DNA from: a virus
Direction: 5' to 3' (one strand)
Virus record (IMG/VR): IMGVR_UViG_3300046008_000291
Span: 113,659-177,658 of that record
DNA length: 64,000 nt
Below the pieces are notes generated by a model. It did no database searches. It was not told the DNA's origin and was given only the letters and a program-made list of their open reading frames with translations. Position numbers and translations under genes: made by a program. Shown piece by piece: positions 15,217 to 35,102 of this stretch (positions within the stretch are counted from its first letter, which is position 1; the number at the start of each line of letters is the position of its first letter).

Positions 15217-15221
15217 AACAG

Positions 15222-15228: not shown

Positions 15229-15248
15229 ATACATAATAGGTAAAGATA

Positions 15249-16514: not shown

Positions 16515-16516
16515 TA

Positions 16517-16551: not shown

Positions 16552-16581
16552 CATAAAGTGTAAACAGTTAAGGAAATAAGA

Positions 16582-17523
16582 ATGGCATACGCATCGGCTG
16601 GCTTAATACAAGCTACAGACTATAACTATCTAGCATGGGGCGGCACTCAAGGTACCTATACCAATGTTACTAAAAACATTGCGTATGTTATGGGTGTAGG
16701 CACAGGTGCCACAGGATACGGACAGACTATTAGTGCAATCAATACAGTCTCTGCCGCTGGAACAGTAACAGCCACACAATGGAGTGGATTACTAACACTA
16801 CTTAATGGCGCATTGGGACATCAAAGTGGTGCAGGTGCACAATTAAGTGGTAACTATACTGCTGGACAGACTATTACATATTTTGCCAACGTAGCAACTG
16901 CGGTGACAACAATTAATACAAATGCGGCTTTATACAGTGCGCAAGGTGCTACAACTACTGGTGCTAACTTTGATGCAACTGTATCTAGTACAACTGGTTT
17001 AAGTAGTTATACAGTGAATCGTGTGGTAACTTTTGCTAGTGCGGATGCAGCACGTTATTTCTTTAATGCAGGTGGACAATTAAATTTAAGATTAAGTACA
17101 GTTAACTCAGCTGATAGTGGAGCAGAAAACAGTTTTGCTAGACTAGTAACTGGTTTGGGCGGCGTTGGATTTAAAAATACTACAAACACTGGTCGCACTG
17201 GGTCTGGTATTACCTTAAATACCAACAATACAGCACTTGGTTATAGAACTAACGTACTTAACACACCGGCTACTATAGTGCAAGTAACTGATACCACAGC
17301 AAGTTACACAGCAAGCACTGGGTATTTACAAGTGTATACAAGCAGTAGTGACACTACTAACGGCTCAAACGGATTAAACGTAGTTTTCCGCACTGTGTTC
17401 ACTGTTGCTGACAAAACTTGGGATGATACATTAAGTTTAACCTACAGAATGGCAGTTGATATTGTATTCCCAGAATCAACATACTTAACAACTAACTCAT
17501 GGGGTACACCAACCATTTCATAG
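16582..17523 (+). CDS. Virion structural protein (313 aa, T/A/G/S-rich)
   Basis: MAYASAGLIQATDYN start, FASADAARYFFNAGG block, fibre-like composition, follows a late-promoter motif. Confidence 0.55.
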   Translation: MAYASAGLIQATDYNYLAWGGTQGTYTNVTKNIAYVMGVGTGATGYGQTISAINTVSAAGTVTATQWSGLLTLLNGALGHQSGAGAQLSGNYTAGQTITYFANVATAVTTINTNAALYSAQGATTTGANFDATVSSTTGLSSYTVNRVVTFASADAARYFFNAGGQLNLRLSTVNSADSGAENSFARLVTGLGGVGFKNTTNTGRTGSGITLNTNNTALGYRTNVLNTPATIVQVTDTTASYTASTGYLQVYTSSSDTTNGSNGLNVVFRTVFTVADKTWDDTLSLTYRMAVDIVFPESTYLTTNSWGTPTIS

Positions 17524-17599: not shown

Positions 17600-17917
17600 A
17601 TGACAACAGAAATTACTCAACTAGTTGCTCAAATTAAACAAGCAACGGATTATCAAACCAACAAACGCATACTTAAAGAAAAAATACAAACGGATTTACA
17701 TGTTCCGTATAACAATGGACTCTTTAAAGTAACACCGGAACTTATAGCATTCCTATCAACTTGGACTGCTGATACTTTATATCTTGAAGATACCTACGAA
17801 AATCCTATAGAAATACAACGACTAGCATTTTTAGAATTGTGTCGGCAACACTATCAACAAGTTATGAACGAATGGCATATTCAATATGACGAAATCCGAC
17901 GTGCCCGCAAAGTCTAA
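17600..17917 (+). CDS. Hypothetical protein (~105 aa)
   Basis: ORF track 17567..17917 starts at TTG; the in-frame ATG at 17600 (MTTEITQLV) is the more plausible start. Confidence 0.6.
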   Translation: MTTEITQLVAQIKQATDYQTNKRILKEKIQTDLHVPYNNGLFKVTPELIAFLSTWTADTLYLEDTYENPIEIQRLAFLELCRQHYQQVMNEWHIQYDEIRRARKV

Positions 17918-18662
17918 AGGTGTTGTATTATTTGCTGTTAACACTGCCACAGTCGATTATGTTCGAATCGCTGAGCAGGCCGCACGTTTAATTAAACATA
18001 CTCTAAACTTACCTACTACCATTATCACAGATCCGGGCGTACCTAGTTTAAGTAACTATCGCACCGGCCATGCTGGCGGCACAGAATGGAAGAACGGTGG
18101 CAGATATCGTGCGTACGAACTTAGTCCCTATGATGAAACTATCTTACTTGACAGTGACTACCTACAGTTAGATACAAGTTTATTAACCATACTCGAAACC
18201 ACTGTCGATTATAAGTTAATGCACTACAACCAAAGCCCTCAACAGTCAATGTCGGGCAACATGGGTCAGTTAAGTTTAGATTATGTATGGGCCACTGCTA
18301 TAACATTTAAGCGTACAGATAAAACACAAATGTTATTTGATCTAGTTGGTCGTATCGAACGTAACTATGCTTACTATCAAAAACTATATCACTTAAGAGA
18401 ACGTAATTTCCGCAATGATTATGCGTTTGCCATTGCCAACAACATTATTAATGGGTACACTACTAACACTACACAAAGTATACCTTTTACCATGTTAACC
18501 TTGGATAAACTAATTAAAAACATTGAAATAACAGGCGAAAAGATGATTATACGCGAAGAAAATTCTGCACATGTCATTGCCCTGCAAAACATACACGTAA
18601 TGGATAAAGATTATTTGCTTAGTGAAAAGTTTGATCAATTGGTGGACACAGTATGCGCATAA
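17886..18662 (+). CDS. GT-A-fold glycosyltransferase-like protein (nucleotide-diphospho-sugar transferase)
   Basis: KGVVLFA N-terminal strand; SPYDETILLDSDY DxD motif. Confidence 0.6.
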   Translation: MTKSDVPAKSKGVVLFAVNTATVDYVRIAEQAARLIKHTLNLPTTIITDPGVPSLSNYRTGHAGGTEWKNGGRYRAYELSPYDETILLDSDYLQLDTSLLTILETTVDYKLMHYNQSPQQSMSGNMGQLSLDYVWATAITFKRTDKTQMLFDLVGRIERNYAYYQKLYHLRERNFRNDYAFAIANNIINGYTTNTTQSIPFTMLTLDKLIKNIEITGEKMIIREENSAHVIALQNIHVMDKDYLLSEKFDQLVDTVCA

Positions 18663-19510
18663 CACCACATCAAGCACAGCAGGGGTTTATGACCATTGCG
18701 CAGAATACAGCAGAGGTTGATTACTTACAGCTTGCTTACGTACAAGCAATGAGTATTAAACTGACCATGCCTGGCAGTTCGTACGCAGTAGCAGTTGATA
18801 AGAATACACTTGAACAGGTAACAGAACAACATCGAAAGGTGTTTGATTATGTAGTTACTATTGACAATGACCTAGCCCAAGACGAAACTTGGAAGTTATC
18901 AAATGAATGGCAGGCATTTTATCTCACACCATTCAAAGAAACAATTAAACTCGAAAGTGACATTGTATTCACTAGAAGTATTGCGCATTGGTGGACTGCT
19001 TTTAGATTAAAGAATGTTGTACTAAGCACAGGATGTAGAGATTATCAGCAAGAGTTAAGCGCATCACGAGAATACAGAAAGTTATTCGACGATAATGAAT
19101 TGCCCGATACTTACAACGGGCTAATGTATTTTAGATACAGTCGTGAAGCCACTGAATTCTTTATGTTAGCAGAACAAATATTTAAAAATTGGGCCTATCT
19201 ACGTGACAACGTATTACTTAACTGTCGCGATGATAATCCTACTACCGATGTTGTTTATGCTCTAACTGCAAAGTTACTTGGTGTAGAAGATTGCACATTG
19301 CCCAGCTTAGATTTTATTAATTTTGTACATATGAAGCCGGCAATTAACGCATGGACCAGTACACCCTGGCCTGAGTTAGTTGTATGCGAAACAGACTTAC
19401 CAATGATACGTATTGCCAACACCAATCAATATCACCCCATACACTATCATGAAAAGTCCTGGGTAACACCTGAATTAATCAAGGAGTATGAACATGAACT
19501 CTTTAAGTGA
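18653..19510 (+). CDS. GT-A-fold glycosyltransferase-like protein, paralog of 17886..18662
   Basis: QGFMTIAQN..VDYLQLAY; TPFKETIKLESD (ExD variant of DxD); RDDNPTTDVVYA. Confidence 0.55.
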   Translation: MRITPHQAQQGFMTIAQNTAEVDYLQLAYVQAMSIKLTMPGSSYAVAVDKNTLEQVTEQHRKVFDYVVTIDNDLAQDETWKLSNEWQAFYLTPFKETIKLESDIVFTRSIAHWWTAFRLKNVVLSTGCRDYQQELSASREYRKLFDDNELPDTYNGLMYFRYSREATEFFMLAEQIFKNWAYLRDNVLLNCRDDNPTTDVVYALTAKLLGVEDCTLPSLDFINFVHMKPAINAWTSTPWPELVVCETDLPMIRIANTNQYHPIHYHEKSWVTPELIKEYEHELFK

Positions 19511-19844
19511 ATTTGAAAAAGCATTGGCCATGCTCAAACCCATTGTAGAAGAAGTTAAAGAATATAGATTGCACTATGATGAACTTGGAATCATTACAAT
19601 GTGTACAATGATCAATCACCCAACGGATACTAACTATATTGTTGTTAGTCGAGATGAATATGACAACTATTTCCGTTATACAATTGTAGATAATAAGCTG
19701 AAAAAGATTGACAACAACCCTGGTTATCGTGTACAATTAGCTAGTAGTACCACTGGCTACGCCACAGTAAAGAAACATGCAGGAATACTAATAGAACCAA
19801 CTGACACCTATCAGGATATAGAATACTATGACACAAATCGTTGA
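19488..19844 (+). CDS. Hypothetical protein (118 aa)
   Basis: ORF overlapping both neighbours in the operon; no motif recognised. Confidence 0.55.
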   Translation: MNMNSLSEFEKALAMLKPIVEEVKEYRLHYDELGIITMCTMINHPTDTNYIVVSRDEYDNYFRYTIVDNKLKKIDNNPGYRVQLASSTTGYATVKKHAGILIEPTDTYQDIEYYDTNR

Positions 19845-20724
19845 TATAGCAGATTTAGCCTGCATCTATCTAAGCTACGATGAACCTAAGAAAGAAGAAT
19901 TTTGGATCAAGATTCAAAACATGGTTCCGTGGGCTAAACGTGTAGATGGGGTTAAGGGCAGTGATGCTGCCCACAAAGCCGCGGCGGCTGCCAGCGACAC
20001 CGAACGCTTTGTATTAATAGATGGCGATAACTTGCCCGATCCAGAATTCTTCAACCTGCAACTTACACTGGATGATACCAATCGAGATGTAGTATTCCGT
20101 TGGAAGGCTCGTAATCACATCAACGGACTTATGTACGGCAATGGTGGCATGAGTTGTTGGACCAAGGACTTTGTCAACAACATGCGCACACACGAAGCCA
20201 GTGATGGTGCAGATGATACAGCTATCGAGTTTTGCTTTGACCCACGCTATTGGGCAATGAATGATTGCTACAGTACAACATACCCAAATCAAAGTTCATA
20301 TCAAGCCTGGCGAGCTGGATTCCGTGAAGGTGTTAAGATGTGCTTGGATCGTGGCACAAAGCCAAGCCTTGGTGAATTTGAGCGACGTGTACACGCACGC
20401 AACTATGATCACTTGAGCATATGGCACAATGTGGGCATGGATGTAGAGAATGGTGACTGGGCTATGTATGGTGCTAAACTAGGCACATATATGACCATGA
20501 TTACGGATTGGGACTACAGAGAAGTACAGGACTTTGATGCACTGAATCGTATCTGGGAGCAAAACAAAGTATTAAATCTAGTAGAAGAATGTAACGAAAT
20601 GTCACATACATTAAGTGTAAAATTAGGATTGCCTGCTCCGCATTTTACAGCGGCGCAGAGTAGATTTTTCAAACATCACTACAAGAGCGTATTTAAGAAC
20701 AAAGGTATAATGTCGAGAGAATGA
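19828..20724 (+). CDS. GT-A-like glycosyltransferase
   Basis: IYLSYDEP..AKRVDGVKGSDAAHKAAA..RFVLIDGDN (DxD); later AWRAGFREGVK. Confidence 0.6.
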   Translation: MTQIVDIADLACIYLSYDEPKKEEFWIKIQNMVPWAKRVDGVKGSDAAHKAAAAASDTERFVLIDGDNLPDPEFFNLQLTLDDTNRDVVFRWKARNHINGLMYGNGGMSCWTKDFVNNMRTHEASDGADDTAIEFCFDPRYWAMNDCYSTTYPNQSSYQAWRAGFREGVKMCLDRGTKPSLGEFERRVHARNYDHLSIWHNVGMDVENGDWAMYGAKLGTYMTMITDWDYREVQDFDALNRIWEQNKVLNLVEECNEMSHTLSVKLGLPAPHFTAAQSRFFKHHYKSVFKNKGIMSRE

Positions 20725-21593
20725 GATTACACGATACTAATTTAGTAAAGTATTTTTCATATATCCCAGAAGTTTGGCGAACTTATCCTGTTTATCCATA
20801 TAATTTCATTGATCGAAATTCAAATACATTAGTGGTTACCATTGGTGACAGCTGGACATTTGGTGCTGATATTTGTCTAGATGATTATGCAATGTCTCAG
20901 GAAAGATTAGACAAGATGTATGGAAACATCGTTGCATCTAACTTGGGTGCCGACTTCTTAAGCCTGGGACAGAGTGGTACTTGTAATTTATATATAATTA
21001 ATAAAATAACAGAATTAGACACCCTTATTCCGCAATTGGATTATACTAATATTATAATCATATGCACATTTACCGAAGCATGTCGAACATTCGATGGACC
21101 GTTTGACAAACACAACGATTATGTCACGTGGTTTAGTAACCAAACATTTGATTCAGTTGATAAGTTTGATTCTATTATAAAATATCATAATGGACTACAA
21201 CAGGATTCAATAGTTGAATTAGCTGCAAAATATCAACACGTTAAAGTAATAGTGGGTACTAACTTTGTTGATCCTATTGGCATGAATCCAGCTATAACAA
21301 TCTTATCTAAAAGTTGGCTGCAGGTATACAGCGAACAAATAATTAATCAAGAATATCTCGGTCATTGTTATATTATGTCGCATTGGGTATTGGACAAACT
21401 GCCCGGAATCATTACTGGATTTAAACCAGATATAGATCGAACTTTATTATTGCAGTGGATGTGTGGATTAACTGAATCAGCAATGACACGAAAACAATTA
21501 GTATCAGACTCCTGTTATTTTAGAGGAATCAATCATCCACTTGCTGAAGGTCATCGAGTATGGGCTGATTATCTATTAGAGCAACTGCAATGA
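20721..21593 (+). CDS. SGNH-superfamily acylhydrolase/acyltransferase
   Basis: VTIGDSWTFG (block I GDS), LGQSGTCN, C-terminal NHPLAEGH; ATGA overlap with the upstream gene. Confidence 0.65.
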   Translation: MRLHDTNLVKYFSYIPEVWRTYPVYPYNFIDRNSNTLVVTIGDSWTFGADICLDDYAMSQERLDKMYGNIVASNLGADFLSLGQSGTCNLYIINKITELDTLIPQLDYTNIIIICTFTEACRTFDGPFDKHNDYVTWFSNQTFDSVDKFDSIIKYHNGLQQDSIVELAAKYQHVKVIVGTNFVDPIGMNPAITILSKSWLQVYSEQIINQEYLGHCYIMSHWVLDKLPGIITGFKPDIDRTLLLQWMCGLTESAMTRKQLVSDSCYFRGINHPLAEGHRVWADYLLEQLQ

Positions 21594-22555
21594 ATACGTA
21601 TACACTACAATTAGAAAATGATCAGTTGCACAATATTACTCCATTTATTAAATTCTGCCGTGATCACGAACATACAGATATTAAGTTAATTGTAAATCAA
21701 GAATCACATTGCTTGCAATTTTGTGGAGTGTATGCAATACTCGATTTATTTACATTTACCTCAGTTACTATTGTCACTGCTAATGCTGTTGAATGCCACG
21801 ATAGATATAGAATTGTTATTAATTGGGCATATTGGTTAAAACAATCTAGAAAATTTAAAACATCAAATGACTATACGTGGAATCAAACAAAAATATTTGG
21901 ATGTTTTTACGGAAGACCTAGTGCACCTCGGGTTGGCATTGCAGGCCATTTAGCGCAACATTATAATGACAAAAGTTTATTACAATTAAGATTTAATACA
22001 GACAGTGAAGATACACGCAAGTTGGTTGATATACAAAAACTATTTGCCTGGGATATAACTGGCGCAGCTAAATTAGATCAGTTGGTGCAAAATAAAGAAC
22101 AATATTTTCAACCTATACCTGCATACGAGTACACCACTGGTAGTTACGATTACAATAGTGATCTTAATAACCTATACAAAAATATTTTTGTAGATATTGT
22201 AGTCGAAGCTACAACTTTAGGTAATACATTTTATCCTACTGAAAAGATTGCACGTGCAATATTGTGTAGAAAACCTTTTATTGTCATGGCATCTAAATTT
22301 TATCTTGGCTATTTAAAACAAATAGGATTTAAAACGTTTGATGAATATTGGCCCGAGCTATATGATAACGCAGATGGTAAAGCACGATATCTTGCTATCT
22401 TAGAATTAATTGATCGTCTGGCAAAATTATCAACAGCAGAGTTGGTAGAGTTAAATATTAAAATGCAACACACTATAGAATATAATCGTCAGTTATTAAT
22501 AGCTCAACAATATAACAAGCAGGTTACAAGAATCATTCCGCATTATGAAAACTAA
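21590..22555 (+). CDS. Glycosyltransferase-like protein (GT-B; GT10/exostosin-like C-terminal half)
   Basis: DIVVEAT..FYPTEKIARAILCRKPFI..LKQIGFKTFD motif. Confidence 0.5.
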   Translation: MNTYTLQLENDQLHNITPFIKFCRDHEHTDIKLIVNQESHCLQFCGVYAILDLFTFTSVTIVTANAVECHDRYRIVINWAYWLKQSRKFKTSNDYTWNQTKIFGCFYGRPSAPRVGIAGHLAQHYNDKSLLQLRFNTDSEDTRKLVDIQKLFAWDITGAAKLDQLVQNKEQYFQPIPAYEYTTGSYDYNSDLNNLYKNIFVDIVVEATTLGNTFYPTEKIARAILCRKPFIVMASKFYLGYLKQIGFKTFDEYWPELYDNADGKARYLAILELIDRLAKLSTAELVELNIKMQHTIEYNRQLLIAQQYNKQVTRIIPHYEN

Positions 22556-23939
22556 AAGCGACTTTATGTCAACGGCAGAAGAAATGAAGGACAAGTTAGG
22601 TCCTGCACTCTGCTTGGCTAAATGGCAACAGGTAAGTCTACACTTGCCTACAGGACTTACTAATAGTTGCTATCATCCACCGTTACATGAAATTGATAGT
22701 GCACCGCTAGTGTTTAACCCGGGTGCCTTACACAATACAGCACATAAAAAACAACAGCGTAAACTTATGTTAGAGCAACAACGTCCAACAGAATGTAGCT
22801 ACTGTTGGAGTGCAGAAGACAATAAGCAACTAAGTGATAGACACTATCGTAGTGGTGAGCCATGGGCAGCTGAACACTACGAAACTATAGTAAATGCACC
22901 TTGGGATCAAGACGTTGTACCAAGTTATGTTGAAGTAAACTTCAGTCACGGCTGTAACCTAGCCTGTAGCTATTGCAGTCCACAGTATAGTACAGAGTGG
23001 GGCAAAGATATTGACCGATGGGGAGCATATCCTACTAGCACTCCACACAATGCACCTGAACATTTTGAAGGCAGACGTAAGCCTATTCCTGTACGTGCGG
23101 AAAATCCCTATGTAGAAGCATTTTGGCGTTGGTGGCCAGAACTGTACGGCAGTTTAAAACACTTCCGTATGACGGGTGGCGAACCCCTGATGGATAAGAA
23201 TACGCATCGTGTGTTTGATTACATACTTGCCCTGCCTAAGAGTGATCTACACGTTGACGTAACCAGTAACTTTAGTGTGGATAGTAATCTGTTTAAGAAA
23301 TACATAGATAAAGTTAAGCAACTATGTGAAGGTGAACGCATTGAACATTTTATGCAGTATGTTAGCCTAGACACAGGCAACAGCGAGCATGCAGAATATA
23401 TTCGCGACGGTCTACATTATTTTAGATGTATGTCTTATGCGCATCAATTTCTAACTGACATTCCTTATCGCAATAGTCTAACGTTTATTATCACAATGAA
23501 TAATTTAAACATACTAGGATTGCGACAATTACTTGAATCGATATTAGAGATGCGTAAAAAATACAGTTCGACCTATCAACGTGTATGGTTTGATACACCG
23601 TTGTTACGCAGTCCAACATATCAAAGTTTACAAATATTACCAGCAAGTTATGTTCGCATATTAGAAGATGTTGTTACCTTTATGCGAGCAAATCAGGCAG
23701 ACGAAACAGCTGATAACTTCGAAGGCTTTAAAGATTATGAAATACAACGTATGGAACGTAATGTTGAATGGATGAAACAAGGTTGCGAACTTGCCGCAGA
23801 CTATGTTACAATACAAAGAGCAGACTTTTATAAGTTCTTCAATGAATACGATAAACGCAGAGGATTAATATTTTTGGAAACGTTCCCACAAATGAAAGAG
23901 TTTTGGCAGGAGTGCAAATATCATGCCGAAAATAGCTAA
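22545..23939 (+). CDS. Radical SAM protein with N-terminal twitch-like Fe-S domain (1)
   Basis: CLAKW..SCYHP..CSYC, then core CNLACSYC (CX3CX2C) and MTGGEP. Confidence 0.85.
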   Translation: MKTKSDFMSTAEEMKDKLGPALCLAKWQQVSLHLPTGLTNSCYHPPLHEIDSAPLVFNPGALHNTAHKKQQRKLMLEQQRPTECSYCWSAEDNKQLSDRHYRSGEPWAAEHYETIVNAPWDQDVVPSYVEVNFSHGCNLACSYCSPQYSTEWGKDIDRWGAYPTSTPHNAPEHFEGRRKPIPVRAENPYVEAFWRWWPELYGSLKHFRMTGGEPLMDKNTHRVFDYILALPKSDLHVDVTSNFSVDSNLFKKYIDKVKQLCEGERIEHFMQYVSLDTGNSEHAEYIRDGLHYFRCMSYAHQFLTDIPYRNSLTFIITMNNLNILGLRQLLESILEMRKKYSSTYQRVWFDTPLLRSPTYQSLQILPASYVRILEDVVTFMRANQADETADNFEGFKDYEIQRMERNVEWMKQGCELAADYVTIQRADFYKFFNEYDKRRGLIFLETFPQMKEFWQECKYHAENS

Positions 23940-25299
23940 CGAAACAGATTTAGAATATAAGCGCAGAGTAATTGACATTAAGTCAGAATCATTCTGCGCG
24001 GCTAAATGGTATAACGCTACTATATGGTTAGGGTCAGGACAGACTACCAGCTGTCATCACCCATTGCCGCATGCTATTGACCTAGAAGCAATTAAAACTA
24101 ATCCCAGTGCTATCCATAACACTCCGCAAAAGAAATTAGAGCGTAAACAGATGCAGGTAGGTGATCGTCCTAGCGGATGCGAATACTGCTGGAAGATTGA
24201 AGACATGTATAAAGATCCTAAGTATGATGGGGTTGATGTACCAACTCCTATTAGTGATCGTGTGTACAAAACTGTAATTTATAACGATGAGGATTTAAAC
24301 TATGCATACAATTTACCTTCGGATCAAGATGTTAACCTCCGGACTTTGGAAATCGCCTTTGACCGCACTTGTCAGTTTGCTTGTAGCTACTGTAACCCTG
24401 CATTTAGCACTACTTGGGTTAAAGACATTCGGAATAACGGTGCCTACACCGATTTGGTGTCGGATGGACGTAACCACTTTACTCATACTCATGATAGCAA
24501 TCAATTGTTTAAGCTCGATGAAGTTAATCCTTATGTCGAAGCGTTCTTCAAATGGTGGGAAACAGACCTGCACAAGACGTTAAAAGAACTGCGCATCACA
24601 GGTGGCGAACCGTTAATGTCAGGATACACCTGGCGTCTAATAGAATGGTTTCAAAAGAACAAAGGACAAAGTACTACACGTCTTGCTATCAATAGTAATT
24701 TAGGATTTGAGAAAGATAAATTAGAGAGGTTATTAGATGCTACACAAGGTATCGAATTGGATTTGTACACTAGCAATGAATCGTGGGGCCGTCATGCAAT
24801 GTATATACGTGATGGCTTGGATTGGGATCAATGGGTTAGCAATGTACAGTATCTATTGGATAGCAAGAAACTGCGAGGCCTACATGTTATGTGTACCATC
24901 AATGCTCTATGCTTACTAAGCCTTACTGATTTGTTATGGATGATAGTAAAACTTAAACGCACTTATGGCAAGGATGCAATTAACTTTAGTCTAAACATCT
25001 TACGATTCCCTAGTTTCCAAAGTCCGTTGATCTTGCCTATGGAGATACGTGAACAAATGGCCGAAGACCTACAACAATTTGGCGAAGCGGCACACAGTGA
25101 ACTACACGAATCTGAATATAATCAATTGACTAGATTGATTGAGTACTTACAGACTGTAGACAGCCCACACAGTGGAGCACTATCACGTGAGATTTTACAA
25201 CGTGACTTTAAGAACTTTTATCAGCAATACGACCAGCGGCGTGGTCTAGACTTTAAATATACATTTACACAATTAGCGGACTGGTACGACACACTATGA
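23923..25299 (+). CDS. Radical SAM protein with N-terminal twitch-like domain (2)
   Basis: CAAKW..SCHHP..CEYC; core CQFACSYC; ITGGEP. Confidence 0.85.
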   Translation: MPKIANETDLEYKRRVIDIKSESFCAAKWYNATIWLGSGQTTSCHHPLPHAIDLEAIKTNPSAIHNTPQKKLERKQMQVGDRPSGCEYCWKIEDMYKDPKYDGVDVPTPISDRVYKTVIYNDEDLNYAYNLPSDQDVNLRTLEIAFDRTCQFACSYCNPAFSTTWVKDIRNNGAYTDLVSDGRNHFTHTHDSNQLFKLDEVNPYVEAFFKWWETDLHKTLKELRITGGEPLMSGYTWRLIEWFQKNKGQSTTRLAINSNLGFEKDKLERLLDATQGIELDLYTSNESWGRHAMYIRDGLDWDQWVSNVQYLLDSKKLRGLHVMCTINALCLLSLTDLLWMIVKLKRTYGKDAINFSLNILRFPSFQSPLILPMEIREQMAEDLQQFGEAAHSELHESEYNQLTRLIEYLQTVDSPHSGALSREILQRDFKNFYQQYDQRRGLDFKYTFTQLADWYDTL

Positions 25300-27854
25300 G
25301 CGATGAGCCAAGCAAGAAATTAACAGTACATCATAAAAATCACAATTACAATACTCGTAAACCTGTGTATATACATGAAGATGATTTAACAGAAGATCAT
25401 ACATATAAATTAATAGAAAGTAAACATTTCTGTATGATACCATGGACACACATGCACAGTATCCCTGACGGTCGTGCATACCCTTGCTGTCTGGGTGAAA
25501 TGCATTTGCCAATTGGCAACTTTAAAGAAAACACCATGGCCGAAGTATGGAACGGCACTCCATATAAACAGATGCGCATAAACATGCTTGAAGACAAGCC
25601 GAGTAAAGAATGTACTCGTTGTTACGAACAAGAAGACAACGGGTTCTTTAGTATGCGTAACAGTCAAAACAAAAACTTTGGCCATCATATTGCCCTGGCA
25701 GATAAAACTAATGCCGATGGCAGTTTAGATGACTTTAAACTACGCTACTATGACATACGCTTCTCTAATCTATGTAACTTCAGTTGCCGCACCTGCGGTA
25801 GCTTGTTCAGCAGCAGTTGGTTTGCGGAAGAAACTAAACTGTTTGGTAAATTAAATCATCCGCAAATTATGTTTTCTGGTAAAGATAAAAATGATATGTG
25901 GGAACAGATGCAGGAGCATATTCCGTACCTCGAACAGATATACTTTGCTGGTGGCGAACCACTGATCATGGAAGAACACTATCGCATCTTAGAAGAACTA
26001 GTGCGTCGTGAAATGTTCCATGTTAGACTAGTCTATAACACAAACTTTAGTCATATGCGTCTTAAAGATAAGATGGTATTTGAGTATTGGAAACTGTTTG
26101 ATGTGGTAAGTGTAGGTGCTAGTTTAGATGATTCATATCTTCGTGGAGAATACATTCGCAAGGGTCAAGACTGGGCAGAAACAGTAGAAAATCGTCGCAA
26201 AATGATTGAAATTTGCCCCAATGTTGACTTTTATGTTAGTAGTACAGTCAGTATACTCAATGCCTGGCATTTAACAGAATTCCATAAAGAATGGGTCGAG
26301 CTTGGCCTGATTAAAGCCAAGGATTGGAACGTAAACATTTTACAGAGTCCAGAGCGTGATCGTATTGACGTGTTGCCTATACAATTTAAAGATCGTATTA
26401 AGCAACGAGTCGAAGAACATATTGCATGGCTAGAACCACAGGATCAATTACAGCGAGCAGTGTCCGGTTATCGAGCTATTATCACATTTATGTATCAAGA
26501 TGATAAGAGTCATTTATTAAAAGAATTCTTTAAGGTCAATGATCAAACAGACGAGATGCGTAAGGAAACTTTTGAAGAAGTATTCCCTGAGTATCAAGAG
26601 TTGCGTGATCATTTAGGCATTAACAAGACGCATGATAATATCTGTATGTTACCCTGGGTTAGTATAGAAGCAAGTCCAGTGGGTACAGCTCGTCCATGTT
26701 GTCTAGCCAAAGACGAAATTACCAAGAGTGATGGTACTCCGTATAAACTTAGAGAAAGTTCATTGGCTGAGATTTATAATAGTGAATACATGCAGGACCT
26801 GCGCCAACAATTCCGCCGCGGTGAAAAACCAGCGACGTGTAATCGTTGTTGGAGTGAAGAAGATGCTGGTATAGTTAGTAAACGTATCAACAGTAGAATT
26901 AGACTTAAAGAGTTTTATCCTATTGTAGACTGGCGTAATGATACACCTGATCAACTATGGTTCATTGATCTTAAACTGGGTAATATTTGTAATCTTAAAT
27001 GTCGTATCTGCGGCAGTTGGAGCAGTAGTAAATGGGCCAAGGAAGAAATTGACTACGAAGCTATAAAATATAAAGACGTGGAAGGATATGACCGTAAGCA
27101 ACACGGAGCATACATGTTCCTACAAGAAGGTACGTGGCCCAGAGACAATGATATATTTTGGGATAACTTAAAAGCACTACTGCCAAACATTAAGTATTTT
27201 GAATTCACTGGTGGTGAACCATTCTTAATTGAAGAACACTTTAAACTATTGCGTTATGCAGTGGAGCACGGTTACAGTAGTCGTATTGATATACATTACA
27301 ATACCAACGGCACTGTGTATCCTAACGATGAAGAAGTTGCCCTATGGAGTAAATTTAGAAATGTTGAAATTGCAGTTAGCATTGACAACACCGAAGCACG
27401 TTTTGAATATGAACGTTATGGCGCAGTGTGGGAAGAAGTAACAGCCAATGTTGTGAAATTTAATGCCATGCGCACTGATTTAATTGCCACACAGGTCTGC
27501 ATGACTGTGAACATACAAAATGTTTATTATCTACCTGAACTATGTGATTGGGTCAATACCCAGGATTTTGACATGGTGCATTTTAATATGCTACATGACC
27601 CACATGTTATGTGTATTAACCGTATGACACCTGCGGCGCAACGATTAGTTATAGATCGATTAACTGCTTATCCATTCACAGTTAAACATCGTGTTGAGAT
27701 CGATAAAATAATTCAGTTTATTGAAAACGGCTCGGGCAGTGATGGCACTGAATTCCTACGTAAGATGCAGGAAACTGATCAATACCGTAATCAAAGCATG
27801 TTAACCACACATAGAGAAATTGCACTAGCAATGGGATATCATGACACCATCTAA
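25296..27854 (+). CDS. Double (head-to-tail fused) N-twitch radical SAM protein, 852 aa (modules 3 and 4)
   Basis: CMIPW..PCC..CTRC / CNFSCRTC / AGGEP, followed by CMLPW..PCC..CNRC / CNLKCRIC / TGGEP. Confidence 0.85.
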   Translation: MSDEPSKKLTVHHKNHNYNTRKPVYIHEDDLTEDHTYKLIESKHFCMIPWTHMHSIPDGRAYPCCLGEMHLPIGNFKENTMAEVWNGTPYKQMRINMLEDKPSKECTRCYEQEDNGFFSMRNSQNKNFGHHIALADKTNADGSLDDFKLRYYDIRFSNLCNFSCRTCGSLFSSSWFAEETKLFGKLNHPQIMFSGKDKNDMWEQMQEHIPYLEQIYFAGGEPLIMEEHYRILEELVRREMFHVRLVYNTNFSHMRLKDKMVFEYWKLFDVVSVGASLDDSYLRGEYIRKGQDWAETVENRRKMIEICPNVDFYVSSTVSILNAWHLTEFHKEWVELGLIKAKDWNVNILQSPERDRIDVLPIQFKDRIKQRVEEHIAWLEPQDQLQRAVSGYRAIITFMYQDDKSHLLKEFFKVNDQTDEMRKETFEEVFPEYQELRDHLGINKTHDNICMLPWVSIEASPVGTARPCCLAKDEITKSDGTPYKLRESSLAEIYNSEYMQDLRQQFRRGEKPATCNRCWSEEDAGIVSKRINSRIRLKEFYPIVDWRNDTPDQLWFIDLKLGNICNLKCRICGSWSSSKWAKEEIDYEAIKYKDVEGYDRKQHGAYMFLQEGTWPRDNDIFWDNLKALLPNIKYFEFTGGEPFLIEEHFKLLRYAVEHGYSSRIDIHYNTNGTVYPNDEEVALWSKFRNVEIAVSIDNTEARFEYERYGAVWEEVTANVVKFNAMRTDLIATQVCMTVNIQNVYYLPELCDWVNTQDFDMVHFNMLHDPHVMCINRMTPAAQRLVIDRLTAYPFTVKHRVEIDKIIQFIENGSGSDGTEFLRKMQETDQYRNQSMLTTHREIALAMGYHDTI

Positions 27855-28926
27855 TACATTTTGTTCAGCACCATGGATGAATAGGTATATTAATCCTATC
27901 GGTGAAATGTCACCTTGTTGTTTTACTACTAATATTGAAACTGAAGCAGACATAGCAGGTCTTAAACAATCATTTATAGACGGAGAACAAGCCCTAGCTT
28001 GTAAGTATTGCTGGCATAACGAACAGCATGCGATGCCTAGCCCAAGACTTGATTTCAATGCCGCCGCTGGTGGTAAACTATCATTTGATGACGATGTATA
28101 TTCTACGGCAGAAGTTAATCAGTTGTCGATTAACATAGGCAATTATTGTAATGCCGAATGTATCATATGTAATGGTATGTCTAGTAGCAAACGAAATAAT
28201 TGGTTAAAGCATCATAATAGTAAATTTCATAAAATTCATACTATACAACGTGCTAACGATAACATTGATGATTTACCGTACTTGAACATCAAGACGCTGA
28301 CTTTGCTCGGTGGCGAACCGACTATACATCCATCTACTTATAAAATTTTAGATTACTATATTAATAAAGGAATCTCAAAAAATATTTCTATTAGTCTAAA
28401 TACAAATGCAAGTAAATTAGATCCGAGTCTATTAGATAAATTAAAATTATTTGACATCCTGTCGATTACCCTGAGCATAGACGGCACCGGGTCATATTTT
28501 GAATATCAGAGAAGACCAATTAAATGGAAAATTGCAAAACAGGTAGCCGAACAATGGATGACTGCCGCCGACAATATTGTAATAAATTATGTTGTCACAG
28601 CAGTTAGTATATGGGGCTTTAATGAATTTCTCACATGGTTTTCTACATTGCCACAGTATGTATTAGATAAAAAACCTACGGTAATTTTAACTCCTGTGGG
28701 AAATAATCCTTGTTTATCACTAGCTGTATTAAACGACGAACAACGAACTAATTGGATTGATCAAGCAACTGATCACCCACTTAAACAACAGATAATTAAT
28801 ATCATTAACTCTACGGTATATGATAAATCATTGTTACCTCAACTAGCTGACAAAGTCAAACTTGAAGATACCACGTCGAAAATAAAATTTGCAGATATAT
28901 TCCCCAATTGGGATTTAAATGGATAA
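27841..28926 (+). CDS. N-twitch radical SAM protein (5), divergent
   Basis: CSAPW..PCC..CKYC; core CNAECIIC; LGGEP. Confidence 0.8.
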   Translation: MTPSNTFCSAPWMNRYINPIGEMSPCCFTTNIETEADIAGLKQSFIDGEQALACKYCWHNEQHAMPSPRLDFNAAAGGKLSFDDDVYSTAEVNQLSINIGNYCNAECIICNGMSSSKRNNWLKHHNSKFHKIHTIQRANDNIDDLPYLNIKTLTLLGGEPTIHPSTYKILDYYINKGISKNISISLNTNASKLDPSLLDKLKLFDILSITLSIDGTGSYFEYQRRPIKWKIAKQVAEQWMTAADNIVINYVVTAVSIWGFNEFLTWFSTLPQYVLDKKPTVILTPVGNNPCLSLAVLNDEQRTNWIDQATDHPLKQQIINIINSTVYDKSLLPQLADKVKLEDTTSKIKFADIFPNWDLNG

Positions 28927-30208
28927 ACCGCAAACACTTTGTCTAGCACCTTGGGTACATACATATCTTAGTCCGCAGACTGAGCGACGTATGTGTTGTG
29001 CTAGTCGCGAGCCTGCGCAGAACTTTGAACAGTATATAGATACCAAGGCCGGCACTGGTAAGTATATTCCTATTACACTTGAAGAACATTGGAATAGCGA
29101 GCACATGAAGTCAGTGCGCCAGCGTATGATGGCAGGTGAAACACTACCTGAGTGCGAAGTGTGCAATGACAAATTGTTAAACACATCCGTTTACCGTAGT
29201 TATTTTGATAGCATGTTTGGTCATAAGTATGATAGTATATGGGACACAACAGACGCAGACGGTGCTACCACAATGCGCCCAGTCAGTTGGGATTATCGAT
29301 TTAGCAATCTATGTAACTTCAAGTGTCGTATGTGCGGTGATATGTTGTCTAGCGCATGGGAAACTGAACAGAGACAACACAACATGATCAACTGGAGTAA
29401 TCCAAAGAATAATTGGATGCTACCAGAAATAAGAGATCAAATATCAGCATTCCAAGACAATCAAATTGAAAAAGAGTTTGCTGAAGCTGTTGAAAATCAT
29501 CAAGTAGAAGAAGTATATTGGGTAGGTGGAGAGCCACTAATGTATGAACAACATTGGCGTTATATGCGACGCATTGTTGAATTAGGAGATGGTAAAAATG
29601 TCTATGCTCGTTACAACACAAACCTCAGCCGTGTCACTTACCGTGGGGCCAATCTGTATACTGATATTCTTAGTGGGCTACGTGATTGGCAGATATGTGC
29701 AAGTCTTGATGGTACGCAAGAAATTGGAGAATATATTAGAACAGGACTTGACTATAATTCATGGCTTACAAACTTCCGTGAAGGAGTTAGAATTGCAAGT
29801 CACAGACGCCAAATGCGAATTGACTTCACTCTCACACTGCCCGGCATGTTTGAAGTCACAAACATTACCCAGCTTGCTGAAAAAGAAAACGTAGATATCT
29901 TGGCTAAGGTTGTTTTTAGCTTTAGCCCTGATATTATCCTTAGTCCACTTGCACTCCCACGCGAGTTATTACATCCATGGTTAGATGAGCTAATCCCACA
30001 AACTTCTGGAGCAATGCAGGATATACTTGTGCAGTTAAAATCACGACCAACGTTTGACGAGCAATGGCCCGATATATACAAAGTAAGTCTTGCAGAGGGC
30101 AAGGCTCGTGTGCTACGACTAGAAAGTATACGTAATGATACACTTACACTAGCAGACATATTAAAAGAGAGACCGGCTGTATATGAATGGTACCAAAACA
30201 TTGCTTGA
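28919..30208 (+). CDS. N-twitch radical SAM protein (6)
   Basis: CLAPW..MCC..CEVC; core CNFKCRMC; VGGEP. Confidence 0.85.
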   Translation: MDKPQTLCLAPWVHTYLSPQTERRMCCASREPAQNFEQYIDTKAGTGKYIPITLEEHWNSEHMKSVRQRMMAGETLPECEVCNDKLLNTSVYRSYFDSMFGHKYDSIWDTTDADGATTMRPVSWDYRFSNLCNFKCRMCGDMLSSAWETEQRQHNMINWSNPKNNWMLPEIRDQISAFQDNQIEKEFAEAVENHQVEEVYWVGGEPLMYEQHWRYMRRIVELGDGKNVYARYNTNLSRVTYRGANLYTDILSGLRDWQICASLDGTQEIGEYIRTGLDYNSWLTNFREGVRIASHRRQMRIDFTLTLPGMFEVTNITQLAEKENVDILAKVVFSFSPDIILSPLALPRELLHPWLDELIPQTSGAMQDILVQLKSRPTFDEQWPDIYKVSLAEGKARVLRLESIRNDTLTLADILKERPAVYEWYQNIA

Positions 30209-31283
30209 TCAACTTGAAATTGATCTAAAGAATGATGCAACAGGAGAATTACTGACAGTATATATTGATGTATTTGACAGTTCGCTCGGCCGTAAATGGT
30301 TATCGGCATTAAACAATCTAATAGAAAAGAACTATCACCTTGAGAAGAATTTTTGTTTTCATGGATTTGTTGAATCTGAACGTAATGCAGAATATATAAC
30401 TGATCAAATTAATCAATCAATTGCAGCAATTAATCAGGCAAATCTCGGCTATCATATCAACGATCATTTCACGGTGGCTAATACCATAGTGCCGGGAGAG
30501 ATTGGCGAATTTCTCGAAGGCGGAAAACTAGTACACGATAAATTAAATCAACTACATAGATATTTCGAAGATCTGCAGGGAGTTAGCGGTCACATGTCGG
30601 GTTATTACAATCAAGCTGATGACAGTACAAAATGGCATATCCGACAGTTAAATTTATTATGTCACGAATACGAATCTCTAGTACTAAGCATGCGCAAAGC
30701 TGTGCATGCACCCGAATGGCGTCGTCCTAGTCAATTGATGTGTTGGTTAAATGCACCACGCTTTGTATTAGACGCGGACGATTTTGAATTATTTGGAATT
30801 GAAAGTTTAAATCGTCCGGCTGGCGGCGTATTTGTAGGAGTTAATAAAGCTATTGGCAAACATCATTATGAAGTCTTTCGTGATGAAGGCGGTGCAGGCC
30901 ATAGGATTGATGAATTGACTACATCAGCAATGCGCTCGCAAACAGAAGCAGCAGGTGATTTTGATATTGAATGGGCAATTAGTCCGGGCCAGTACGATTG
31001 GATGAAAAAAGAATTAGCAGATTTTACTCAATGGTTAATAGACAATGGATTCGACCCCGACGATAAATCATTAACTATAGGACACCCACAGGTAGGACAG
31101 GTTGATCTACAGCGAACATTCGGATCACAAGACCATAATGTAATATGGTCACAACTGGGCCTACATCTAAACGTATATAAGTTGAGAACTAGTCAAGCGT
31201 CTGCCATTTATGAATATAATTGGTCAGATTCTGATTATCGAGATCAACAGATACTACAGATTAAACGAGGACAAATAGCCTAA
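30183..31283 (+). CDS. Hypothetical protein (366 aa) coupled to the rSAM array
   Basis: Long ORF overlapping the last rSAM gene; no motif recognised. Confidence 0.65.
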   Translation: MNGTKTLLDQLEIDLKNDATGELLTVYIDVFDSSLGRKWLSALNNLIEKNYHLEKNFCFHGFVESERNAEYITDQINQSIAAINQANLGYHINDHFTVANTIVPGEIGEFLEGGKLVHDKLNQLHRYFEDLQGVSGHMSGYYNQADDSTKWHIRQLNLLCHEYESLVLSMRKAVHAPEWRRPSQLMCWLNAPRFVLDADDFELFGIESLNRPAGGVFVGVNKAIGKHHYEVFRDEGGAGHRIDELTTSAMRSQTEAAGDFDIEWAISPGQYDWMKKELADFTQWLIDNGFDPDDKSLTIGHPQVGQVDLQRTFGSQDHNVIWSQLGLHLNVYKLRTSQASAIYEYNWSDSDYRDQQILQIKRGQIA

Positions 31284-32177: not shown

Positions 32178-32827
32178 TGCGAATATTAACCATTGGCGAT
32201 AGCTTTACCTACGGCGATGAACTAGTTGATATTCAGCAGGCATGGCCGTATGTATTACAAAATAAGTTATCCTGTGAGTTAACAAATTTAGGAAAGCCTG
32301 CTACAGGTAATACCAGCATGGTTCGAAATGTAGTAGAACATGCTAGAGATTATGATTTAATTATCGTCGCCTGGAGTCATTTTGCCCGTATTGAATTTGC
32401 CGACGAGCATGGCATTTTTGATACATGGCCCGGACATCGTGGCGTGGCGTTTACTAATAATATTGCATATAGAATGGAGTTGTTAAATTATATAAATCGT
32501 CACCACAACGATGAATATTTGTATAAACAATATCTATTGAATATAATTTTATTACAAACTTATGCAGATCACCTAGGCAAAAAATTGCTTATGCTTAATA
32601 CGCAGATTAATTGGAATAAACTATCAGAAGATTCATACATGGAAAAGTTTGCATCTACGATTAATCGAATCGATACTCAATATTTTATTGGATGGCCAAA
32701 TGAATCGATGATGGAGTGGACATTTGGCACTCCCAAAGGACCAAACGGTCACTTTTTAGCAGCAGGACATACAATAGTAGCGGATAAAATTTATGAATAT
32801 ATTAGGCATCTCGGCTGGGTTTCATGA
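32177..32827 (+). CDS. SGNH-superfamily protein
   Basis: LTIGDSFTYG, LGKPATGN, GHFLAAGH. Confidence 0.65.
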   Translation: MRILTIGDSFTYGDELVDIQQAWPYVLQNKLSCELTNLGKPATGNTSMVRNVVEHARDYDLIIVAWSHFARIEFADEHGIFDTWPGHRGVAFTNNIAYRMELLNYINRHHNDEYLYKQYLLNIILLQTYADHLGKKLLMLNTQINWNKLSEDSYMEKFASTINRIDTQYFIGWPNESMMEWTFGTPKGPNGHFLAAGHTIVADKIYEYIRHLGWVS

Positions 32828-34292
32828 CGCAGCTGTAACAGTCATTCAAAATGACGAAATTGTATTTGCTGGGCATAGTGAACGCTACAGCAAAATTAAA
32901 CATGACCCAAACTTATGTTCAAGTTTACTAGCAGATGCAATTTTAGAATCGGGTGCATATCCACATCAAATAGCCTACTATGAAAGACCTTGGGTTAAGA
33001 AGACACGTCAACTCTACGCTGGCCAATACAGTGAGCTAACCAAAGGCTGGAGTGTACGCAATATGATTTCCAAGGCTGCACCGTGGTTCAATCATCGAGA
33101 CATTCCACTTAAAACATACAATCATCATTTAAGTCATGCGGCCGCAGGCTTTCAAACAAGTCCGTTTGACAATGCAACAGTTGTGGTAATTGATGCTATC
33201 GGTGAGTGGGACACTATTAGTATTTGGACAGCAAAGTATGTCAATGGTAAGGCACAATATACAAGAGTATGGCGCCAATTATACCCACACAGTATCGGCT
33301 TGATGTACAGTGCGTTTACCAAAGAAGTTGGACTTAAACCCTTAGACGAAGAATACATTCTAATGGGCATGGCTGGTTGGGCACAAAAAAATACAGGACG
33401 ATTGAGTGACGAACTTTCTAATTGGTTAGTTGATCACGAGTTTGATCTGACATTAAAACACAATCTACATATCGGCCTGCCCGAGAATGACATGCGAGCT
33501 CGCTGGAACGACTTCGAAATTGCCGCGGCAGCTCAGACATTAGCGGAACAATTGATACATAATATTATGTACAAGGCAATGAAGTTAGCACCTAACCGTA
33601 ATTTAGTATATGCTGGTGGCGTTGCTCTTAATTGTAGTGCTAATAGAGACTTGGGAGAATACTTTGATGAAATATGGATTATGCCTAATCCTGGTGATGC
33701 TGGTAGCAGCCTTGGAGCGGCGGCCTTGGCACACGGGGGTCGACTTAATTGGAATAATGCTTTTCTTGGCCATAATATTAGTGGCCCTTATCCTGTCACC
33801 GATGTTGTCTCCGAATTAATGACCAATAAGATCGTTGGTGTTGCTAGCGGTCGTGCAGAATTTGGACCAAGAGCATTGGGTAATCGTAGCCTATTGGCGG
33901 ACCCGCGCGGTCATGATATTAAAGATCGAGTTAACTTAATTAAACATAGACAAAAGTTTAGACCTTTTGCTCCTATCATACTTGAAGAATTCGCCGATGA
34001 ATATTTTGAAATGCCCAACGGCTTTGCCACAAGCAGATATATGCAGACAACTGCAAAATGCTTGCGTCCTGATGAATTTCCTGCTATAATACATGTTGAT
34101 GGTACAAGTCGAGTACAGACTGTTCCACGAGATGGCAGTGGTATACGTGAACTATTATGCTTATGGTATACTTGGACGGGTTGCCCGATGTTGCTTAATA
34201 CAAGTTTAAACATCAGAGGCGAGCCCATGGTAAATGATCGCGCTGACGCAGATCGCTTTGAAGAATTATACGGAGTTCGTGTTTTATCATGA
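32793..34292 (+). CDS. O-carbamoyltransferase (NodU/CmcH/TobZ family)
   Basis: ILGISAGFHDAA, HHLSHAA, DAIGE, GGVALNC, PGDAGSSLGAA, EFGPRALGNRS, RPFAP, HVDGTSRVQTV, LLNTSLN. Confidence 0.92.
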   Translation: MNILGISAGFHDAAVTVIQNDEIVFAGHSERYSKIKHDPNLCSSLLADAILESGAYPHQIAYYERPWVKKTRQLYAGQYSELTKGWSVRNMISKAAPWFNHRDIPLKTYNHHLSHAAAGFQTSPFDNATVVVIDAIGEWDTISIWTAKYVNGKAQYTRVWRQLYPHSIGLMYSAFTKEVGLKPLDEEYILMGMAGWAQKNTGRLSDELSNWLVDHEFDLTLKHNLHIGLPENDMRARWNDFEIAAAAQTLAEQLIHNIMYKAMKLAPNRNLVYAGGVALNCSANRDLGEYFDEIWIMPNPGDAGSSLGAAALAHGGRLNWNNAFLGHNISGPYPVTDVVSELMTNKIVGVASGRAEFGPRALGNRSLLADPRGHDIKDRVNLIKHRQKFRPFAPIILEEFADEYFEMPNGFATSRYMQTTAKCLRPDEFPAIIHVDGTSRVQTVPRDGSGIRELLCLWYTWTGCPMLLNTSLNIRGEPMVNDRADADRFEELYGVRVLS

Positions 34293-34690: not shown

Positions 34691-35102
34691 ACACCAAACA
34701 GCACACATGCGAGCCGCACATATCTACGCTGAACTAAGCACAGCACGTAGACTTAAAGTGGGCGCACTTGTAGTTAAAGATGATAGAATTGTATCAATTG
34801 GCTACAACGGTATGCCCAGTGGATGGGACAACAACTGTGAATATGATTTAGAAGATGGAAATATTAAAACTAGACCGGAGGTATTACATGCAGAAACTAA
34901 CGCACTTGCGAAATTGGCTAGAAGTACTGAGTCTGGTCTTGATGCTGATTTATTTGTTACTCATAGTCCTTGCTTGGATTGTGCCAAGCTCATATATCAG
35001 AGTGGTATTAAACGAGTATTCTATGCTACTGCTTACCGCGATAATTCCGGGATTAATTTCCTTAAATCTTCGGGTATTGACGTAGAGCAACTAGATGTTT
35101 GA
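34680..35102 (+). CDS. dCMP deaminase (ComEB/T4 cd-like)
   Basis: KVGALVV..GYNG, HAETNA and PCLDC zinc motifs. Confidence 0.88.
   Translation: MKPKHQTAHMRAAHIYAELSTARRLKVGALVVKDDRIVSIGYNGMPSGWDNNCEYDLEDGNIKTRPEVLHAETNALAKLARSTESGLDADLFVTHSPCLDCAKLIYQSGIKRVFYATAYRDNSGINFLKSSGIDVEQLDV

Follow-up and report, generated by a model that had tools for sequence, protein, structure and literature searches.

Radical S-adenosylmethionine (SAM) enzymes of the twitch type share a layout of a Cys, a beta-hairpin, a second Cys, a helix and two further Cys, with a single auxiliary cluster (PMC6231123). Virus-encoded glycosylation of virions is known from PBCV-1 with A64R, where the glycosyltransferase genes lie beside structural genes, and, as cited in PMC12619734, from the capsids and tails of mycobacteriophages. 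The window analyzed here, a stretch of 64,000 nt, comprises bases 113659-177658 of the 177,658-nt IMG/VR virus contig IMGVR_UViG_3300046008_000291. CheckV assigns this contig a completeness of approximately 49%, and thus the window represents a fragment of a large, uncultured lake phage. At 22545-30208 it carries five overlapping plus-strand open reading frames (ORFs) of 464, 458, 852, 361, and 429 aa, which together encode six complete radical SAM modules (M1 to M6).

From their sequences, the five ORFs are predicted to give rise to six complete, functional and non-redundant enzymes of the uncharacterized N_Twi_rSAM family. On balance, we favor the reading that the phage produces a glycan on which every paralog carries out a separate radical edit. 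The family is defined by the NCBIfam model NF033640 ("twitch domain-containing radical SAM protein"; 398 positions, curated cut-off 170 bits) and has in common with our modules a twitch motif of four Cys at the N-terminus, with CX3CX2C and GGEP after it. Its record is a bioinformatic definition only and is silent on tandem arrays, on two subtypes and on a phage glycan cassette. All six modules match NF033640 end to end, from model positions 1-3 to 386-398, with 197-393 bits. Six end-to-end scores above the curated cut-off place the module pattern far beyond chance and identify the inverted architecture as a named family of unknown function, as a preliminary description of this stretch, made from the sequence alone, had proposed. 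The modules are:

22545..23939, plus strand: M1, N-twitch radical SAM type A; NF033640 273.5 bits, model positions 3-398; CLAKW...SCYHP; CNLACSYC
23923..25299, plus strand: M2, N-twitch radical SAM type A; NF033640 286 bits; CAAKW...SCHHP; CQFACSYC
25296..26615, plus strand: M3, N-twitch radical SAM type B, the first of two modules in the fused 852-aa ORF; NF033640 393 bits (25419-26603)
26616..27854, plus strand: M4, N-twitch radical SAM type B, the second of two modules in the fused ORF; NF033640 334.5 bits (26634-27821)
27841..28926, plus strand: M5, short N-twitch radical SAM type B, accessory; NF033640 197.5-199.8 bits
28919..30208, plus strand: M6, N-twitch radical SAM type B, the ortholog group with the widest distribution; NF033640 285 bits

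Successive ORFs of the array overlap by 4-17 nt, the first one overlaps its upstream neighbor by 11 nt, and the last one overlaps its downstream neighbor by 26 nt, so that the whole block looks translationally coupled. The 852-aa ORF (25296-27854) holds two full modules, M3 and M4. Pfam Radical_SAM was found in all five ORFs, and Pfam SPASM matched residues 46-110 of the 852-aa ORF over all 67 model positions, N-terminal to the Radical_SAM match. A seventh copy of NF033640 lies beyond the window and apart from the array, on the minus strand at G000:C1:100372-101508 (256.8 bits), approximately 12-13 kb before the window start; it reads CIAPF...SPCA, without the second Cys of the CC pair discussed below.

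In the alignment of the six modules, the invariant positions (M6 numbering) are the N-terminal C8, C26/27, C79, and C82 together with W12, followed by R93, the CX3CX2C residues C132, C136, and C139, then S144 and W147, GGEP at 203-206, and finally N235, S262, Y272, and R274. ORFs, family model and alignment thus agree on six modules in five ORFs, each with a Cys-rich segment ahead of the CX3CX2C/GGEP core, as the preliminary description had it. For M6, AlphaFold2 produced a very confident model from an alignment of 48 sequences (predicted local distance difference test, pLDDT, 95.3; predicted template modeling score, pTM, 0.92). Its order of elements is C8, a beta-hairpin (strands 14-17 and 23-24), C26, helices at 54-71, and C79/C82 at the start of a helix (77-83), then a partial TIM barrel (approximately 120-330) and an all-helical C-terminal domain (348-426). 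In this model the M6 N-terminus is the canonical twitch layout, but it precedes the barrel.

For the comparison of motifs, 69 modules from 12 loci were collected; besides the window, these loci are a non-redundant set of ten from IMG/VR and that of the cultured Ralstonia phage RsoM2USA, and they represent 15 IMG/VR loci. No second-cluster motif CX5CX3C was found before the core in these 69 modules, which identifies the domain as twitch rather than SPASM. Outside CX3CX2C, only four Cys are conserved, which falls short of the seven-Cys SPASM motif. According to sequence and model, each module should bind the SAM-cleaving [4Fe-4S] cluster on CX3CX2C and one auxiliary [4Fe-4S] cluster on the four Cys of the N-terminal twitch domain. 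The M6 model contains no element resembling an RRE, the winged-helix, peptide-binding recognition element of ribosomally synthesized and posttranslationally modified peptides (RiPPs), since only the twitch hairpin precedes the barrel, which does not exclude a separate RRE protein. Sequence-order-dependent comparisons against the PDB with Foldseek and VIA-align matched the radical SAM core of M6 only (approximately 95-390; best Z 12.4). As structural matches are confined to this common core, no solved relative exists. Among long homologs of 550-1100 aa, no informative fused domain was encountered, only duplications and TPR repeats.

The modules fall into two subtypes, and the motifs are those given in the preliminary description. 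Type A reads C-x-A-K-[WF] ... S-C-[YH]-[HYR] with C-x3-C-x-Y-C; to it belong the clades of M1 and M2 as well as gp349 of RsoM2USA. Type B reads, with few exceptions, C-x-x-P-W ... C-C with C-N-x-x-C-R-x-C and comprises M3 to M6 and, in part, M7. In the window, M1 shows CLAKW...NSCYHPP and M2 CAAKW...TSCHHPL, while M3-M6 show CxxPW...CC, and the distinction holds throughout the 15 phage loci compared. Within the CC pair, the second Cys is not invariant across the family: its place is taken by Y or H in type A (M1 and M2, respectively) and by A in the seventh copy. The type A His occupies the position of an extra, non-invariant Cys of type B. The suggestion that the His subtype ligates its auxiliary cluster differently finds no support, since both subtypes keep four Cys at the canonical twitch positions. 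A His ligand is accordingly ruled out as a requirement for the cluster; the type A His could still have a catalytic role.

Pairwise identity between the six modules amounts to 17-35%, with M2 and M1 at 35%. In contrast, M1-M4 and M6 share 45-95% identity with their own orthologs in other phage contigs, which marks the modules as old, non-redundant paralogs. Each of these five forms a clade of its own, even when phages carrying 8-10 copies are included. Ratios of nonsynonymous to synonymous substitution rates (dN/dS) against the orthologs in loci L001 and L003 are 0.03-0.13, values that are approximate because dS is near saturation. The modules are thus ancient ortholog groups under purifying selection. 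This agrees with the earlier view of diverged paralogs, and the alignment and phylogeny proposed along with it resolved separate ortholog clades instead of near-identical copies. That the modules might be redundant or decaying duplicates without distinct roles, an idea to which the tandem arrangement of a single family lends some color, has next to no chance of being right: besides the low mutual identity, the separate clades and the dN/dS values, all seven cluster Cys and GGEP are kept in every module. We reject it on orthology and dN/dS.

The single groups differ in their distribution. M1 orthologs in L001-L008 show 57-90% identity, and RsoM2USA gp349 33%; M2 orthologs in other phage loci show 46-88%. 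M3 and M4 are fused in the window and its closest relatives and are stand-alone genes in L007 and L008. No ortholog of M5 was identified in L001-L014, the closest relatives included; some related contigs do carry M5 orthologs, which form a group of their own with approximately 40 clusters and 40-75% identity. For M6, all 8000 of 8000 candidates scored as homologous, the best 120 at 77-91% identity and on contigs of up to 340 kb, and 5380 representatives in a 50%-identity library were matched (E <= 1e-3).

Related phage loci that we fetched carry 5-10 N-twitch paralogs each, and arrays of 2-10 genes recur across other phages and bacteria. An NAD epimerase/dehydratase gene lies within the array of L008, and arrays of other phages also interleave SGNH proteins and other radical SAM types. 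Examples of the latter are a 756-aa B12-binding radical SAM protein (L009:12307-14574, plus strand) and a 388-aa protein with a C-terminal SPASM domain (L010:14575-15738, plus strand), both among N-twitch genes. A 692-aa phage protein has S8 peptidase domains as its sole matches. The statement that the family comes mostly from uncultured samples is broadly right, yet it overlooks cultured carriers. RsoM2USA has a minimal cassette with a single type A radical SAM gene (gp349) between two c1 GT-A genes, all of its cassette genes being annotated as hypothetical, and the Vibrio phages K566 and K567 match the NF033640-type family. In the cultured, 255-kb phage K566 (L096, OZ196521.1 159004-176239), four clustered type B genes (locus tags 0303, 0305, 0306, and 0308) have a nicotinamide phosphoribosyltransferase gene and a gene with a PagP-like annotation in their vicinity; K566 is a possible laboratory model. 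Among isolate genomes, Mangrovivirga halotolerans and Marinigracilibium pacificum have matches at 28% identity.

The array is located inside a phage-encoded glycan island of approximately 25 kb, behind fibre-like virion genes. Gene clustering over the 15 phage loci defines a conserved backbone, whose 5' part is composed of structural-like proteins, a 313-aa protein, the small c10, two c2 genes, the small c8, c1, a variable insert and the radical SAM array. Downstream of the array follow c6, two GDSxT proteins, a NodU/CmcH-type carbamoyltransferase, a P-loop kinase, a deoxycytidine monophosphate (dCMP) deaminase, and a large protein with a second c1 domain. In the window, the island and its surroundings consist of:

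13849..17523, plus strand: three Cys-free proteins (455, 421, and 313 aa) with 51-59% S/T/N/G/A, by composition candidate glycan acceptors
17886..19510, plus strand: two GT8-like glycosyltransferases, the c2 pair (13-ortholog profile against glycogenin-1, E 2.7e-6, N-terminal half)
19828..20724, plus strand: glycosyltransferase c1 with GT-A fold (AlphaFold2 pLDDT 84), present in every phage locus with the array
20721..22555, plus strand: variable insert, a 290-aa protein with a GDSxT-like motif (TIGDSWTFG) and the 321-aa c12, by sequence motifs
30183..31283, plus strand: the 366-aa c6, directly 3' of the array, after the last radical SAM gene in L001-L008
31283..32827, plus strand: two proteins with the SGNH/GDSL hydrolase motif GDS(F)TYG, the c3 pair (weak Pfam Lipase_GDSL_2, DUF6071)
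32793..34292, plus strand: NodU/CmcH-type carbamoyltransferase (Carbam_trans_C 3e-47, Carbam_trans_N 2e-39; phrog_1601 3.5e-94)
35095..37503, plus strand: 802-aa protein ending in a second c1-type GT-A domain, which clusters with c1 in all loci
37463..43009, minus strand: amino-sugar nucleotide genes (Pfam E 1e-14 to 1e-88)

The candidate acceptors stand at the head of the island. The proteins of 455 and 421 aa each match phrog_14394, a "virion structural protein", with their N-termini. The 313-aa protein, which reaches 59% S/T/N/G/A and has no Cys, also precedes the cassette in L001 and L006-L009. Immediately upstream of the glycan island, an ORF of at least 4369 aa (window 2-13111, plus strand) continues past the first base of the window. 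With 0.2% Cys and 40% S/T/N/G/A, its product is presumably a virion protein such as a giant fibre. In the gap before the first cassette gene (17524-17579, plus strand), a near-consensus sigma-70-like site (TTGACA-17-TATACT, 11/12) is directly followed by a 12-bp stem-loop; in a promoter and terminator scan of the region, site counts were at chance level.

Glycosyltransferases are found on both sides of the array. The c2 alignment shows an invariant Asp (D103) within a conserved DSD consensus, and the pair is kept in most phage loci and in RsoM2USA. For c1, in which D65 and D67 are nearly invariant, the best Foldseek match is the capsid-glycosylating transferase of PBCV-1 (2p6w, E 1.4e-4), followed by SunS/ThuS, WrtF and RmlT. 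The 802-aa protein shares 28-34% identity with the c1 paralogs of RsoM2USA. Its N-terminus consists of three repeats of approximately 130 aa (F[WF]x[VI]...D[FY]xFxWxxEPW...H[VT][WF]), for which Pfam holds no match to the unit. The amino-sugar nucleotide genes are ordered epimerase/dehydratase, DegT, PIG-L deacetylase, GFO/IDH/MocA, DegT, and epimerase/dehydratase. Genes for a P-loop kinase, a dCMP deaminase and a thymidylate synthase are also present within the island or next to it.

Other cassette members are less readily classified. The proteins of the variable insert have no Pfam or PDB match, and c12, of which L002 and L003 carry one or two copies, has none in the ESM Atlas either. The motif CRKPFIV, which also occurs in the sequences of the insert, we take by eye to be GT-B glycosyltransferase-like. 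Over seven orthologs, c6 has 76 invariant columns, yet searches of Pfam, of PDB sequences and of the ESM Atlas yielded nothing credible. PHROGs contains no family for the N-twitch radical SAM proteins nor for the seven cassette proteins scanned. Between 16582 and 43009, a single intergenic gap reaches 60 nt (it measures 75 nt) and small free ORFs are absent, and neither a precursor peptide nor a Cys-rich protein was found near the array.

A second line of evidence comes from bacteria. We scanned one genome per species and sought relatives with an alignment of M6 relatives. They belong chiefly to Bdellovibrionota (Bacteriovoracaceae, Bdellovibrionales) and Bacteroidota (Crocinitomicaceae, Chitinophagaceae, Saprospiraceae, Flavobacteriales), some on complete chromosomes, and their N-twitch arrays comprise 2-8 genes. 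Excluded from the bacterial evidence were L016-L021, L026, L028, L051 and perhaps L043. The cassette genes c1, c2, c5, and c6, together with M6 orthologs at 45-77% identity, occur in L016 and L017, two contigs of Haliscomenobacter metagenome-assembled genomes (183 and 148 kb), and in L018-L021, L026, L028, and L051. Contigs of such assembled genomes that carry the phage cassette are probably phage contigs binned with bacteria and hence were not counted as bacterial.

Among 137 neighbors in 29 clearly bacterial loci, Lipase_GDSL_2 was the commonest Pfam family (seven), followed by Glycos_transf_1, PhyH, and ABC_tran (five each), UbiA (four), and PMT_2 (three); we called the neighbors enriched in SGNH, GT1/GT4, UbiA, and PMT_2. 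Within 10 kb of a radical SAM gene, homologs of the window's carbamoyltransferase were found in seven bacterial loci, of its epimerase/dehydratase in nine, and of its DegT in two. Three of five genomes checked (3-4 Mb) have their sole NodU-type carbamoyltransferase within the radical SAM locus, and in the other two it is one of two or three copies. The Crocinitomicaceae locus L066 (OZ252050.1 38439-59422) combines UDP-glucose dehydrogenase, epimerase, carbamoyltransferase, an SxtJ-like protein, a UbiA-GT1-SGNH fusion (1080 aa) and two radical SAM proteins in its first part with a sulfotransferase, an SGNH protein, a third radical SAM protein, PhyH, a WelO5-like oxygenase (an Fe/2-oxoglutarate halogenase or hydroxylase), and an ABC ATPase in its second. 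By its gene content, this locus would make a glycolipid or glycan with unusually heavy tailoring. Since sugar genes accompany the radical SAM genes in phages and in bacteria with no structural genes in common, the family is tied to heavily tailored glycans or glycolipids. The sugar setting suggested for the modules at the outset is thereby supported by gene context in phages and, independently, in bacteria.

The scheme that we infer, with cluster binding, a sugar substrate, one edit per paralog and a virion fibre as acceptor, would run as follows. The two GT8-like and two GT-A enzymes would assemble a glycan, with the neighboring amino-sugar genes supplying the sugars. Each radical SAM paralog would abstract a hydrogen atom from a particular sugar C-H, and the auxiliary cluster would help to resolve the radical, leading to a keto sugar, epimerization or deoxygenation as in BtrN, NeoN/HygY, and AprD4. 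SGNH proteins and carbamoyltransferase may add further decorations. The acceptor would likely be a Ser/Thr-rich virion fibre protein, alternatively a host envelope glycan, and the number of paralogs, 5-10 in the related phage loci, may set the fine structure of the glycan. We base the sugar substrate on the GT8-like pair, the GT-A enzyme resembling the PBCV-1 transferase, the carbamoyltransferase and the amino-sugar genes; on the bacterial radical SAM loci with the same sugar genes as an independent line; and on the in-array epimerase/dehydratase of L008 and the position of the RsoM2USA gene between two GT-A genes. The lack of a precursor ORF or a gap for one, of a Cys-rich protein, and of an RRE-like element in the model points away from a local peptide substrate.

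Several observations weigh against this assignment, most of which also speak for protein maturation. The substrate class is read wholly from gene neighborhood, and most characterized SPASM/twitch enzymes act on peptides or proteins. The best PDB matches include the RiPP maturases TigE, SkfB, CteB, and SuiB beside BlsE, MoaA and viperin, no match stands out (Z 11-12.4 for all), and the array adjoins virion structural genes that are possible substrates themselves, directly 3' of structural-like genes in every phage locus. The modules could thus modify residues of their virion neighbors, the 4369-aa giant or the Ser/Thr-rich fibre-like proteins, directly, with the glycosyltransferases serving a separate purpose; epimerization, C-C or C-O cross-links or Ser oxidation would then stabilize or diversify fibres. 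Cross-linking of an entire protein is on record for one SPASM enzyme, published in 2026 (PMC13692751). Nevertheless we rate direct protein modification as unlikely: neither an RRE-like element in the model nor a precursor ORF beside the array was seen, bacterial family members reside in sugar and glycolipid loci without phage structural genes, and the RsoM2USA gene is flanked by glycosyltransferases. Thioether cross-linking in particular is ruled out for the neighboring structural proteins, which contain no Cys.

Products other than a decorated virion were considered as well. Aminoglycoside pathways use BtrS, BtrD, BtrN, and TobZ, comparable to the gene set here, and two DegT proteins, PIG-L, GFO/IDH/MocA, glycosyltransferases, carbamoyltransferase and twitch radical SAM proteins do resemble such sets. 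The island might accordingly make a free aminoglycoside-like or small glycosylated metabolite or a modified nucleotide sugar, the radical SAM enzymes acting like BtrN, NeoN, and AprD4. No 2-deoxy-scyllo-inosose synthase-like gene or exporter was present among the ORFs scanned at 13-44 kb, the best fold match of c1 is, by a modest margin (E 1.4e-4), a capsid-glycosylating enzyme, and the island is fixed behind fibre genes, which together render a free product decidedly improbable. Hypermodification of nucleotides or DNA, for instance a sugar built or edited for phage DNA bases, would account for the P-loop kinase, dCMP deaminase and thymidylate synthase as well as for sub-threshold matches to viperin, MoaA, and QueE models, and phage glycosyltransferases are known to hypermodify DNA (cited in PMC12619734). 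However, the thymidylate synthase, encoded on the opposite strand at a distance of 11 kb, has the scores of a canonical ThyA (Pfam 3e-106; phrog_160 1.6e-113), no hydroxymethylase was seen, the same radical SAM arrays occur in bacterial loci of the surface-glycan type, and the cassette tracks structural genes in RsoM2USA and its relatives. A role in DNA modification is in our view very improbable.

Beyond editing of a phage-made glycan, we put forward a wider picture tentatively and with considerable doubt. Large aquatic phages may glycosylate their fibres autonomously, with modular, fast-reshuffling N-twitch radical SAM enzymes (5-10 per phage fetched) editing protein-linked sugars into a combinatorial "glyco-code" that alters host range or shields the virion, while the family would act equivalently on surface glycans of the predatory Bdellovibrionota and of Bacteroidota. 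Such edits could include epimerization, deoxygenation, oxidation, and C-C bond formation. Should this hold, a new large class of carbohydrate-modifying radical enzymes with permuted domain order would emerge. The N-twitch family comprises thousands of sequence clusters, and its arrays of up to ten genes lie in sugar cassettes, both in abundant lake phages and in two bacterial phyla. Should the reading as glycan enzymes itself be true, the family would represent a large reservoir of new carbohydrate radical chemistry, phages would build heavily tailored glycans with their own enzymes, and NF033640 would gain a function. The cultured carriers, RsoM2USA with one type A gene and K566/K567 with four clustered type B genes, make the question directly testable.

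Among known systems, BtrN, NeoN, HygY, BlsE, and AbmM resemble our modules in having one auxiliary cluster on Cys, beta-hairpin, Cys, helix, CxxC and in their amino-sugar gene setting. In these enzymes the twitch domain follows the barrel, whereas here it precedes it, and their pathways employ one such enzyme per step, in contrast to the 5-10 paralogs of the phage loci. To our knowledge, radical SAM enzymes acting on sugars are few, with one or two per known pathway. By analogy, the modules would work most like carbohydrate twitch enzymes such as BtrN. In sequence and fold comparisons, BlsE scores E 1.5e-6 and Z 11.6 and BtrN E 0.69, similarity being confined to the radical SAM core, and peptide maturases and MoaA score equally.

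The RiPP and protein maturases SkfB, CteB, SuiB, anSME, and CrpC have the radical SAM core and auxiliary Fe-S clusters in common with the modules and offer the nearest solved folds (Z 12.4 for SkfB, 11.5 for CteB and anSME). They differ from the array, which shows no RRE, no seven-Cys SPASM, no adjacent precursor, no Cys-rich protein, and a reversed domain order. With PBCV-1, the island shares virus-encoded glycosyltransferases beside structural genes, and A64R is itself the best fold match of c1. Six radical SAM tailoring enzymes distinguish this phage from such virion glycosylation systems, and glycosylation of its virion is predicted from its genes. We know of no virus virion glycosylation system that includes radical SAM tailoring enzymes, and none appeared in the papers searched. 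Literature searches returned no paper on the name or accession NF033640 or on an N-terminal twitch/SPASM domain, and no description of radical SAM arrays in phage glycan cassettes. The array is thus twitch radical SAM tailoring joined to virus-encoded glycosylation in a permuted, multi-paralog form, a pattern that is recurrent in phages and apparently unpublished.

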